Assembly: GCA_005223125.1 (NCBI GenBank)
Contig: NJBH01000001.1
Location: 128,001-192,000 of the forward strand
Source: Promethearchaeota archaeon Loki_b32
GTDB taxonomy: Archaea > Asgardarchaeota > Lokiarchaeia > Sigyniarchaeales > SOKP01
Length of the DNA stretch: 64,000 bases
Reading direction: 5' to 3'
The position numbers were made by a program, and so were the translations under genes. The notes beneath the pieces are model-generated. The model had not been told where the DNA came from. It saw nothing but the letters and a program-made list of their open reading frames with translations, and did not search any database. This document shows, piece by piece, positions 1 to 3,592 of this stretch (its first letter is position 1; each line of letters opens with the position of its first letter).

Positions 1-1108
1 TAGGACCATATAAAACATTAAAAGGAAAGTCAGGAGCCTCACTTTTTAATACTGGTACTGCTATTCCTCCTGCAGCAAGTTGAGGTAAAATTATAGTTTT
101 CTTTTTCGTAATTTTAGCAATACCCGTAGCTCCTACCGCTTCTATTAATTGTTTGTTCCCAAAATTATCTCCCCGTGCTGCACACCATACATTTATACCT
201 TTAGAATCAACACATAATACCCAAGCATCTATTCCTTTAAGAGAACGCATAACTTTAATATATGTATAAAGATAATTAGCAGTTACTATAATAGGAGACT
301 TTTCATCAGGTGTTCCAGATTGATAAATGCCTGGTTCAATTGGTACGTGATCTACTTGTCCTGTAAAAATACAGCGATAGATGCTCATTTGAGATCTAAA
401 TCCTTTAAATTTTCTAAGACTAGGGCGGTAGTATCCTGGTTCTTTTAAATTTTCATCCTCTACCTTTTTTAATTCAATTACTTGAATAGATCCATGACTC
501 CATTTTTTTTCTGCTACCATCTTAAAACCTATAGGTTCTAAATAATTGAAAAACCACTTTACTAGAAAAGTACTTTCTAATCGTAGTCTTCTTAATTTTT
601 TTCTGTACCTCCACCGCTTTATGTTAAATAAAATTTTCCAAATACCTGAAGGAACAAATTCAGCTGCTAAAATCATCCGACCATTCGGTTTCAAAGTTTT
701 CCATGCATTTCTTAGAAAGACCTGTTGTTCAAATGGCCTAAGTTCTGAAAGCATAAAAGTACTAACAATTAGATCTTTAGAACTATCTTCTACGGGTAGA
801 TCGCTGATGGAACCTATTTGATATAGAAGTTTTGTACGTTCTTCAGAAGGATAATTTTTCATGGCAGTATTTATCATTTGTAAGTTTTTATCTATTGCAA
901 GAACATTATTTCCTTTTAAAGCCATTTTTTTAGCAAGAGTTCCTGTCCCACATCCTACTTCTAAGATAATCTGTGGTGCTTTTATCCTTTCTAGTACCCA
1001 ATCATGAACTTTGATATTTGTACCTTTAGTAAGTGCTGTGAATTTTGATTCATATGTTTCTGGTTCTAATTCCAACTTTCTCATATAGACTACAGCGATT
1101 TTAATCAC
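1..1108 (-). CDS. Class I SAM-dependent methyltransferase fused to an HgcA/CdhD-like corrinoid-binding domain (3' end runs off the window)
   Basis: Manual translation gives one uninterrupted frame from GTG 1108 (in-frame ATC 1099, ATG 1084) to position 2. N-terminal half has SAM motif I ILEVGCGTG, VLAID, DLIVSTFMLSEL and LKPNG. C-terminal half has PIEPGIY, PDEKSPIIVTANY, DAWVLCVDSKGINVWCAARGDNFG, IILPQLAAGG and YGP, the conserved blocks of the HgcA corrinoid domain. Absent from the ORF track because no stop lies in the window. Confidence 0.85.
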   Translation of the reverse strand, partial: MIKIAVVYMRKLELEPETYESKFTALTKGTNIKVHDWVLERIKAPQIILEVGCGTGTLAKKMALKGNNVLAIDKNLQMINTAMKNYPSEERTKLLYQIGSISDLPVEDSSKDLIVSTFMLSELRPFEQQVFLRNAWKTLKPNGRMILAAEFVPSGIWKILFNIKRWRYRKKLRRLRLESTFLVKWFFNYLEPIGFKMVAEKKWSHGSIQVIELKKVEDENLKEPGYYRPSLRKFKGFRSQMSIYRCIFTGQVDHVPIEPGIYQSGTPDEKSPIIVTANYLYTYIKVMRSLKGIDAWVLCVDSKGINVWCAARGDNFGNKQLIEAVGATGIAKITKKKTIILPQLAAGGIAVPVLKSEAPDFPFNVLYGP

Positions 1109-1326: not shown

Positions 1327-1914
1327 TTATTTCTGAAGCAGTTTTGTTGCATTTAGAATGTTAAATCCAAGAATTTCTGCTTGTTTTAACTGGTTTTCTT
1401 GGTTTAAAATATCGCCTGGTTTGTCAGCTACAGCTTTTACCCCAAATAAATCACCTGGAACACATATAATTCCACATGAGAGCATCCATGTATAAATGGC
1501 ATTAAGTGTTATTGTTTGACCTCCCGTTGTTCCACCACCAACCGCAATAGCTCCACCTACTCTCCCTTCTAAAGGTTTTTCGACATCTACCGCAAAGTGT
1601 CTATCAAGTAAGGAGAGTAATTGAGCACTAACATTTAGGAAATAAACAGGACTTGAGATTATAATCGCATTACACCATCGAAACGCATCATAAATTCCTT
1701 GCATATCATCATTAATAACACAAGTACCCGTTTCCCTACATGAGTCGCAGGCATTACAAGGTTTAATTTCTAATTCGCTTAAAAGAAAAATTTTAACATT
1801 CCATCCATTATTTTCAAAAGGTTTTAGAGCATACCTTAAGAGGATTTCACTATTCCCTTTCTTCCTTGGAGTCCCTGATATACCAATAACATTCATTTTT
1901 TTTTTTGAACTCAA
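1327..1914 (-). CDS. Iron-sulfur flavoprotein / NADPH-dependent FMN reductase (flavodoxin-like, Isf family)
   Basis: GISGTPRKKGNS FMN loop, CNACDSC-x5-C cluster motif, SPVYF; start may be ATG 1896. Confidence 0.85.
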   Translation of the reverse strand: MSSKKKMNVIGISGTPRKKGNSEILLRYALKPFENNGWNVKIFLLSELEIKPCNACDSCRETGTCVINDDMQGIYDAFRWCNAIIISSPVYFLNVSAQLLSLLDRHFAVDVEKPLEGRVGGAIAVGGGTTGGQTITLNAIYTWMLSCGIICVPGDLFGVKAVADKPGDILNQENQLKQAEILGFNILNATKLLQK

Positions 1915-2091: not shown

Positions 2092-2169
2092 TTAACAACA
2101 CCCTTCTTTTGATTCCTCATCATCACTTTTTGTTTCTTCAGTACAACATTCTTTATCTTTATCTCCCAT
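2092..2169 (-). CDS. 25-aa acidic micropeptide with two Cys-Cys pairs (MGDKDKECCTEETKSDDEESKEGCC), putative metal-binding peptide
   Basis: ATG 2169 to TAA 2092; GAGGT Shine-Dalgarno just upstream; own TATA-like box and palindromic operator; duplicated 3' end differs only synonymously. Confidence 0.7.
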   Translation of the reverse strand: MGDKDKECCTEETKSDDEESKEGCC

Positions 2170-2209: not shown

Positions 2210-2227
2210 TAGTTAGGTTCCTAACTA
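2210..2227. promoter_or_regulatory. Palindromic operator TAGTTAGG-tt-CCTAACTA upstream of the micropeptide gene
   Basis: Perfect 8-bp arms; abuts minus-strand TTTAAATA TATA-like box; identical copy at 2807-2824 within a 35-bp shared block (2194-2228 = 2791-2825). Confidence 0.75.
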
Positions 2228-2299
2228 TTTAAATGTTTCGTTCCGTATAATTAAGCTCCTAACAAAGATTTAGAGAGATGATAATCTCGCGTAAAACTA

Positions 2300-2764
2300 T
2301 TAGGGTTTTAGTGCGTTTAACAATTTTTGGAGTAATTCTCCCAATATTATGATCTCTTCTTGTTTAATTCCAGGACAACAACCGTTTACAATCGTTTCTA
2401 AAGGAGGGGTAACATTTTTTAAATCTTTCCCTTTTTTTGTAAGCTTAACGAAGAGACTTCTTCTATCGTGAGGATTCGATTCACGAGAGACTAATTTTTT
2501 CTTTTCCATTGTGTCTACCACACCTGTAATTGTAGATCTAGAACAATTACATGTCTCTGCTAAATCTTTAAATTGTTGACTATCAACGCTCCATAATTCC
2601 CTCAGAATGAAATGTTGAGTTGGTGTAAGCTCTAATTCTTGAATATTATCACGTTCCAATTTTTCGTATTTTTTGCTTAAAATATTTATAAGTTCAAAAA
2701 CATCAACAATCTCTTTGGGTTGACAGCAATTATTAGGGGATTCGGGGGTTTTATCTCTACTCAT
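2300..2764 (-). CDS. MarR-family transcriptional regulator, cysteine-rich
   Basis: LTPTQHFILREL, SRSTITGVVDTMEKKKLVSR, DRRSLFVKLTKKG winged HTH; extra NNCCQ, TCNCS and NGCCP motifs. Confidence 0.9.
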   Translation of the reverse strand: MSRDKTPESPNNCCQPKEIVDVFELINILSKKYEKLERDNIQELELTPTQHFILRELWSVDSQQFKDLAETCNCSRSTITGVVDTMEKKKLVSRESNPHDRRSLFVKLTKKGKDLKNVTPPLETIVNGCCPGIKQEEIIILGELLQKLLNALKP

Positions 2765-2806: not shown

Positions 2807-2824
2807 TAGTTAGGTTCCTAACTA
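2807..2824. promoter_or_regulatory. Palindromic operator TAGTTAGG-tt-CCTAACTA upstream of the MarR gene (autoregulatory site)
   Basis: Identical to 2210-2227; abuts minus-strand TTTATATA TATA box at 2823-2830. Confidence 0.75.
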
Positions 2825-3010
2825 TATAAAATTATTTGAAATTTCCACTTGATAAATGATAAATTTTTTTATTTTCCATAAATTAACCTGGAAATTTTAT
2901 TATTTAATAAAATAAAAGAAATATGCTTATATTGGATAATTAGTTAATTTTAAATATTCTTTTTTTTTGTCAATACATAAAAATAATATTCAAAAAAAGA
3001 GGTAATCTAG

Positions 3011-3592
3011 ATGGAAAGTAATAATGATTTGAGTGAGAAACAATATTGGAAGGATGTTATAAAAAAACATCAAAGTGCATTTATAGTATTAATAGTAGCA
3101 GGCGTTTGCGTAATTGTAGGAGCTTTTTTAGTATTGTTTTGGGTTATAGAGATAAATCCCTTCGTCAATCCACGTACAGGTACCTTTGACGATTGGACAC
3201 TAAATTATATCGTTGGCATTACTATTCTTACAATTTTATCGGAGTTGCTATTTGTAGGTATTCCAACAGGAATATTTTTTGTCTTAGGAGGATATTTATA
3301 TTGGCGTAAATTACCTGAAGAAGAAAAGCAAGAATTCAAGGATAGAGAGAAGAAAAAGACTCATAGAAAAAAAGAATACGGCGGGGGCGGTGGTTTTAGC
3401 TTCTTTATGTTTATAGCTTATTGTATTTATATTGCTGTCGACGGAAATTACAATGCAACTTTTGGTAGCCAACCATTTAGTTATTGGATTTATTCATGGC
3501 TCTTAACTCTAATGTGGATATTCATAGTATTTGGTATTCCCATAGGAATTCTACTTATTTCATACTATATATACAAATGGAGAAAAAAATAG
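3011..3592 (+). CDS. Hypothetical integral membrane protein (about 4 TM helices)
   Basis: 193-aa ORF, GAGGT RBS, hydrophobic segments around a charged loop. Confidence 0.7.
   Translation: MESNNDLSEKQYWKDVIKKHQSAFIVLIVAGVCVIVGAFLVLFWVIEINPFVNPRTGTFDDWTLNYIVGITILTILSELLFVGIPTGIFFVLGGYLYWRKLPEEEKQEFKDREKKKTHRKKEYGGGGGFSFFMFIAYCIYIAVDGNYNATFGSQPFSYWIYSWLLTLMWIFIVFGIPIGILLISYYIYKWRKK

Follow-up and report, generated by a model that had tools for sequence, protein, structure and literature searches.

Which reaction is carried out by a protein that joins a SAM-dependent methyltransferase and an HgcA-like corrinoid protein in one chain? This question is raised by a gene at the beginning of the archaeal DNA analysed here, a stretch of 64,000 nucleotides (G000:C18:128001-192000) that is called the window throughout. 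The gene and its parts inside the window are as follows.

1-1108, minus strand: 5' two thirds of the methyltransferase-HgcA-like fusion gene (whole gene G000:C18:127420-129108)
464-1084, minus strand: CpaM-like class I SAM methyltransferase domain, aa 9-215 (NF043040, E 1.8e-39; PF08241/PF13649)
2-376, minus strand: CFeSP/HgcA-type corrinoid-binding domain, aa 245-369 inside the window (NF040863, E 1.8e-50; PF03599)
170-199, minus strand: cap-helix motif GINVWCAARG, aa 304-313, with the Cys309 codon at 184-182

Integrity of the fusion gene

A single frame on the minus strand is open from GTG 1108 (or ATG 1084) through base 2, and the gene reaches 580 nt beyond the window edge, to C18:127420. 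The product has 562 residues from the GTG and 554 from the ATG. From the N-terminus, a class I SAM methyltransferase resembling CpaM is followed by a corrinoid domain of CFeSP type and then by five membrane helices. The original prediction of a one-frame fusion was borne out, with all cited motifs where they had been placed. It had also called for inspection of the C-terminus beyond the window: this part holds five hydrophobic helices, and the 562-residue chain stops after the last of them, with no fused ferredoxin.

Split pairs of CpaM and HgcAB-like genes occur in relatives, so that two genes might have been joined by the assembly. However, the domain junction is crossed by contigs of four independent studies with substitutions only and 0 gaps (window positions: X6, 1-1214; X9, 265-1214; X1, 133-991; X5, 189-950), and neither a stop nor a frameshift separates the domains. 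The best 120 homologs returned are 511-578 residues long, each has both domain sets, and they include full-length proteins from single-contig genomes. The probability of an artefact seems negligible, and this explanation was rejected. All three domains of the fusion are under purifying selection (dN/dS 0.07-0.18).

Methyltransferase domain

The N-terminus had been likened to corrinoid-associated methyltransferases, and the profile search agrees with this. NF043040 (CpaM) is the best model; aa 6-214 align to positions 2-215 of its 216 at 135.4 bits, which is under the cut-off of 180. Motif I, EVGCGTG, is located at aa 50-56 (window 961-941) and is intact, and the dN/dS of this domain is 0.07-0.12. 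The Cys of motif I is the sole Cys of the domain and is invariant in 121 fusion sequences. The closest fold is that of UbiE/phospholipid-type enzymes. In the methyltransferase tree, the domain forms a clade apart from stand-alone CpaM. A predicted complex of the methyltransferase, the corrinoid domain and SAM scored 0.09 and is not used as evidence.

Likeness to ArsM is seen in the class I SAM fold, the ars context and a related MarR regulator. The fold and the weak similarity to the ArsM model (43 bits) would fit a methyltransferase that acts on the metalloid directly, as ArsM does, with the corrinoid part as an accessory. In contrast to ArsM, however, the domain lacks all of the arsenic-binding cysteines in the ArsM alignment, its score is far from the NF008823 cut-off of 263, and true arsM genes are found on C37. 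Furthermore, a corrinoid partner is always present among the fusions and pairs examined. ArsM identity was rejected, and direct action on the metalloid is very improbable.

Corrinoid and membrane domains

TANY is at aa 276-279, and LPQLAA and then YGP follow downstream of GINVWCAARG, which occupies 199-170 as claimed. NVWCAARG is invariant in 121 of 121 sequences (the best 120 homologs and the query), and Cys246 is kept in 113 of the 121. Cys309 is the cap-helix cysteine, equivalent to Cys93 of HgcA. The cap region was of low confidence in the first whole-chain model; in the domain model, obtained from a deeper domain alignment, residues 307-312 form a helix with Cys309 in its first turn. The corrinoid domain model matches CFeSP (2h9a) with a Z of 18.4 and an rmsd of 2.5 over 140 aligned residues, and the top Foldseek match of the whole-chain model is the published HgcA model 9a0b. 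The C-terminal five-helix membrane domain of HgcA type is present beyond the window edge.

The profile scores for aa 256-553 were 172 bits for HgcA (NF040863, cut-off 275), 173 for HgcAB-like proteins (NF043039, cut-off 285) and 70 for CdhE. The CFeSP large subunit CdhE/AcsC has the same corrinoid fold, whereas the fusion is without its N-terminal Fe-S or TIM-barrel domains and has the cap-helix Cys and the TM domain. In addition, CdhE is separate in the corrinoid tree (100/100), and the real CdhE of the host is encoded elsewhere, on C44. CdhE identity was therefore rejected, and the assignment to an HgcA-like domain holds. Identity with the HgcAB-like fusion (NF043039) was also rejected, because there is no C-terminal ferredoxin and the score is 173 against 285 bits.

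The motif NVWCAARG satisfies the loose pattern N(V/I)WC(A/S) (PMC10083202) and fails the high-stringency pattern N(V/I)WC(A/S)(A/G/S)GK (PMC10087281). It had been proposed that the change from GK to RG means a substrate other than Hg. The change marks a clade, but no substrate is indicated by the change itself; a non-Hg substrate is plausible, the arsenic gene context being better evidence for it than this substitution.

Ferredoxin partner

The next gene encodes the following protein.

C18:127057-127362, same strand as the fusion, 57 nt on: HgcB-like 2[4Fe-4S] ferredoxin, 101 aa

The ferredoxin contains the CxxCxxCxxxCP motif twice, the sequence GCGC, and CCG at its C-terminal end. Cys81 is the equivalent of Cys73 of HgcB, and Cys83 is additional. 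The layout of canonical HgcB, namely an adjacent ferredoxin with two cluster motifs, the Cys73 equivalent and a terminal Cys, is found here. The sequence CTECSA departs from the HgcB motif C(M/I)ECGA, and the score of 52.8 bits is below the NF040864 cut-off of 99. A ferredoxin follows the fusion in all four of the distant fusions checked.

Phylogeny and arrangement of the modules

The corrinoid tree has CdhE as the outgroup and is based on only 138 columns; its canonical rows were chosen by motif and database names, with no experimentally verified methylator sequence among them. Canonical GK-type HgcA forms one clade (99/90), and the host fusion family lies outside it. This family forms a single clade (100/98), whose sister group is the Thorarchaeia-type fusions (97/83), and it groups weakly with HgcAB-like paralogs (94/85, 85/76). 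A sister position of the family to canonical HgcA was not rejected by the AU test (p-AU 0.27). The same three groups were recovered by the methyltransferase and corrinoid trees.

Three arrangements are found: MT::A + B, as in the host gene; MT + A::B (L058, L061, L063, L080, L116); and MT::A::B, one chain of 596-647 residues (L060:2115-4058, L113:456-2390, L115:3683-5473). The methyltransferase domain is absent from all GK-type representatives retrieved, in keeping with the earlier statement that canonical HgcA has no such N-terminal domain. From the matching trees, the three arrangements and the lack of a GK-type carrier among those retrieved, the methyltransferase is, as judged by sequence comparison, a regular component in the non-canonical branch and not in canonical HgcA. 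The fusion had further been read as a Rosetta stone for direct methyl loading from SAM to cobalamin. Purified canonical HgcAB takes its methyl group from SAM, the donor, without a methyltransferase partner (PMC11588087). Because of this, and because the GK-types retrieved are without the domain, the argument concerns the non-canonical branch alone, where such loading is putative, and does not extend to canonical HgcAB.

The system of CpaM (NF043040) and the HgcAB-like fusion (NF043039; Pyrococcus furiosus type) is the nearest branch in the corrinoid tree. It has the same three functional parts with a homologous methyltransferase, and it is a second system in many relatives. The joint, however, is opposite: in the host it is the methyltransferase that is fused, and a separate gene encodes the ferredoxin, which retains a Cys tail. 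Both domain trees also set the host fusion apart as a well-supported clade of its own. The parts are all from known families, and the link between CpaM and corrinoid proteins is already in NCBIfam naming. No description of the methyltransferase-HgcA-like fusion was found in the literature search, whose scope did not include the main Asgard hgcA survey. Zhang et al. reportedly described widespread hgcA-like genes in Asgards in 2023, and the fusion proteins may be counted among these.

Distribution and comparison with canonical HgcAB

The names attached to the nearest homologs are Promethearchaeota, Lokiarchaeota, Thorarchaeota and those of other Asgards. The fusion is found in 31 of 36 same-genus genomes and, counted as intact matches, in about 83 of the 105 genomes of the host's family. 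Promethearchaeum syntrophicum MK-D1 carries it (L049) with the motif NVWCGARG, as does CP104013, which we take to be Ca. Lokiarchaeum ossiferum. Fusions that are more distantly related were found in other Asgard families, Anaerolineae and Abyssubacteria. A plasmid search found nothing.

It should be mentioned that a further fusion clade (L092:1480-3141, L098:748-2412, L178) has NVWCAAGG(G/K), which differs from the canonical motif by one step, and that this clade passes filters using N(V/I)WCA(A/G). The only canonical hgcA among the 251 Asgard genomes searched is L076:732-2092 (L124). It is about 75% identical to proteins including some named from Anaerolineae, an ArsM-like methyltransferase and a flavoprotein lie upstream of it, and it is a possible transfer.

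The fusion and its ferredoxin resemble canonical HgcA/HgcB (NF040863/NF040864; Pseudodesulfovibrio mercurii ND132) in the CFeSP-type corrinoid domain, the cap-helix Cys, the five TM helices, the downstream 2[4Fe-4S] ferredoxin with the Cys73 equivalent and terminal CC, and the frequent ars neighbourhood. They differ in the added 215-aa SAM methyltransferase, in NVWCAARG replacing N(V/I)WC(A/S)(A/G/S)GK, in CTECSA and GCGC of the ferredoxin, in scores below the cut-offs, and in the position outside the canonical clade. Although the fusion would work in the manner of HgcAB, it should not be filed as HgcA, since it lacks the strict motif, scores under the cut-off and lies outside the clade (PMC10087281).

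The same comparison bears on whether this is a divergent HgcAB with its own SAM-binding module, in which case Hg methylation would be functional and Asgards would be overlooked methylmercury producers. All parts needed in ND132 are present, namely the cap-helix Cys, five TM helices, a two-cluster ferredoxin, Cys81 and the terminal CC (PMC7305189); the loose motif is passed (PMC10083202), and grouping with canonical HgcA was not rejected (AU p=0.27). However, the high-stringency HgcA and HgcB motifs are both departed from (PMC10087281), and the 172 bits are well below 275. The fusion lies nearer to the HgcAB-like paralogs than to the canonical clade (99/90), and tested carriers of these paralogs make no MeHg in culture (PMC4646819, PMC10087281). 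Its near-core presence in the family would also be hard to explain by mercury alone. Functional Hg methylation as the main role is therefore considered unlikely.

Host locus and regulator

Upstream of the fusion gene, the following features were found.

1119-1238, no strand assigned: direct-repeat copy of about 120 nt, 76-80% identical to 2006-2125
1327-1914, minus strand: FMN-reductase/iron-sulfur-flavoprotein-like gene with a CxxCxxC motif (PF03358)
2092-2169, minus strand: 25-aa acidic peptide with two Cys-Cys pairs (CC peptide)
2212-2233, minus strand: TATA-like TTTAAATA (2233-2226) abutting the palindrome GTTAGGAACCTAAC (2225-2212)
2300-2764, minus strand: Cys-rich MarR regulator (PF01047)
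2809-2830, minus strand: second TATA-like box (2830-2823) and identical palindrome (2822-2809), upstream of marR

The order on one strand is a candidate operator, marR, a second candidate operator, CC peptide, flavoprotein, fusion and ferredoxin. The palindrome pattern has 3 copies in the genome against 0.085 expected, is kept in related loci, and adjoins TATA-like boxes. The palindrome GTTAGGAACCTAAC is a candidate MarR operator of the peptide-fusion-ferredoxin unit, and the element at 2809-2830 a candidate autoregulatory site. A bacterial promoter scan gave results below shuffle level; this type of scan is not suited to archaea. A similar CC peptide is found at the equivalent position in 10 related loci, and the peptide is a putative metal(loid) binder.

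The repeat copy at 1119-1238 holds a remnant of the 3' end of the CC-peptide gene. The flavoprotein cassette (887 nt, between the direct repeats, 1119-2125) is skipped in close-strain contigs of four studies, with the joint at 1214-2102. The flavoprotein therefore seems to be dispensable and was rejected as an essential part. Its gene is present in some relatives, and in four loci (L199, L201, L207, L208) it follows this MarR where the fusion lies elsewhere.

On C37, two true arsM genes are immediately preceded by a MarR paralog with 57% identity. In the sister clade of the window MarR, arsM is next or one gene on in 9 of 10 sampled loci. The locus G000:C37:117289-119894 contains the paralog, then two arsM genes and, by eye, DsrE/F/H-like genes, and it has a related palindrome, TTCGGATCCGAA. 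The C37 locus suggests an Asgard MarR subfamily that regulates arsenic methylation.

Two other neighbours are conserved. A membrane protein gene without a family name (window 3011-3592) is divergent from marR and conserved in 16 related loci. A gelsolin-repeat protein gene (L001:13133-14026), convergent with the ferredoxin gene, is a conserved neighbour in this genus and is probably unrelated in function to the fusion.

Arsenic gene context

Enough flank was available at 78 distinct loci. In 47 of these, ars genes lie within 3.5 kb (ArsR-like in 44, Acr3 in 29, ArsC-like in 7), and in 9 the window-type MarR is present; these counts are not independent, as the genomes are kin. About a quarter of the loci (f4, f27, some Thorarchaeia-type) have no screened ars or MarR neighbours. 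The common order is arsR<-(DUF166)-acr3-fusion-ferredoxin-CxC protein-(arsC), and that in MK-D1 is arsR<-acr3-fusion-ferredoxin. No ArsM over the cut-off was found in the single-contig genome of MK-D1; the host genome has two. Archaeal MetK is present, and no MerA was over the cut-off. The search for MerB gave no matches, and neither did its controls.

The CxC protein family, which has no Pfam match, stands beside the fusion in about 30 loci (L182:3260-3580), with a weak Atlas lead to Thioredoxin_3 (0.89, 25% of members). Two acr3 loci of the host (G000:C28:272-2328 and C32:53695-60297), with several ArsR-like genes, share the thioredoxin-like CxC protein that flanks the fusion in relatives. 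The C32 locus also has small uncharacterised proteins flanking the fusion in relatives, as well as a MerA-like disulfide reductase in the form of a C-terminal fragment.

Canonical hgcAB also adjoin acr3, arsC, arsR and arsM (PMC7438021; 10.1101/2022.10.17.512643), so that the ars context cannot separate As from Hg. Arsenic is indicated by both regulatory settings, because ars genes are the neighbours in one and the sister clade of the MarR precedes arsM in the other.

Proposed function

Three parts are always together: the methyltransferase, the corrinoid-plus-membrane protein, and the Cys-tailed 2[4Fe-4S] ferredoxin; genes of metal(loid)-type repressors adjoin them. We tentatively favour, at slightly less than even confidence, a cobalamin methyl relay that is anchored in the membrane, is fed by SAM and serves a thiol-bound metalloid, probably arsenic. 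By analogy with HgcAB chemistry (PMC11588087, PMC7305189), the ferredoxin would reduce cobalamin to Co(I), and the methyl group of SAM would give methyl-Co(III) with Cys309 as the thiolate ligand. The methyl group might then pass to a thiol-bound acceptor on Cys81, Cys83, Cys99 or Cys100 of the ferredoxin or on the CC peptide. The fusion suggests that the class I domain would serve as the SAM-presenting module, a step that is weakened by the reaction of purified canonical HgcAB with SAM alone (PMC11588087). From the gene context, the acceptor might be As(III) or a methylarsenical, with Acr3 and ArsC handling the inorganic pool. When thiols are present, As(III) can be methylated by methylcobalamin. 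Mercury methylation would be at most a side reaction, and the arsenic relay leaves room for some Hg activity. Against this relay stand the ars context common to canonical hgcAB, the kinship of the loci, the quarter of loci without ars or MarR neighbours, the two ArsM of the host, and the independence of canonical HgcAB from a methyltransferase partner.

The loci without ars genes, the UbiE/phospholipid-type fold, the essential-looking membrane domain and the flavoprotein recruited alongside in some strains would also suit a non-metal acceptor at the membrane, whether lipid, quinone, small thiol or protein, or a methyltransferase that only reactivates oxidised cobalamin in the manner of methionine synthase; a thiol-stress regulon would then be behind the ars context. 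However, soft-metal(loid) chemistry is suggested by the Cys tail of the ferredoxin, by the CC peptide and by the Cys-rich ArsR/MarR proteins, and genes of lipid or quinone pathways do not recur around the fusion. Such a role seems quite unlikely.

Implications

Surveys are affected in that the fusion passes loose hgcA filters and fails strict ones. Because the filters disagree, the methylmercury potential of marine sediments would be over- or under-counted, depending on the activity of the fusion.

The question of the native function of the HgcA family is an old one, and SAM was shown to be the methyl donor only recently. The fusion offers a direct test of this function, because a single chain has the SAM domain, ars genes are its neighbours, and cultured Asgard hosts carry it. 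It is conceivable, though somewhat doubtful, that this methyltransferase-bearing sister branch of HgcA represents a cobalamin-dependent methylation of arsenic (a metalloid) mechanistically distinct from that of ArsM, near-core in one large Asgard family, and the native chemistry from which Hg methylation, as a side reaction, arose.
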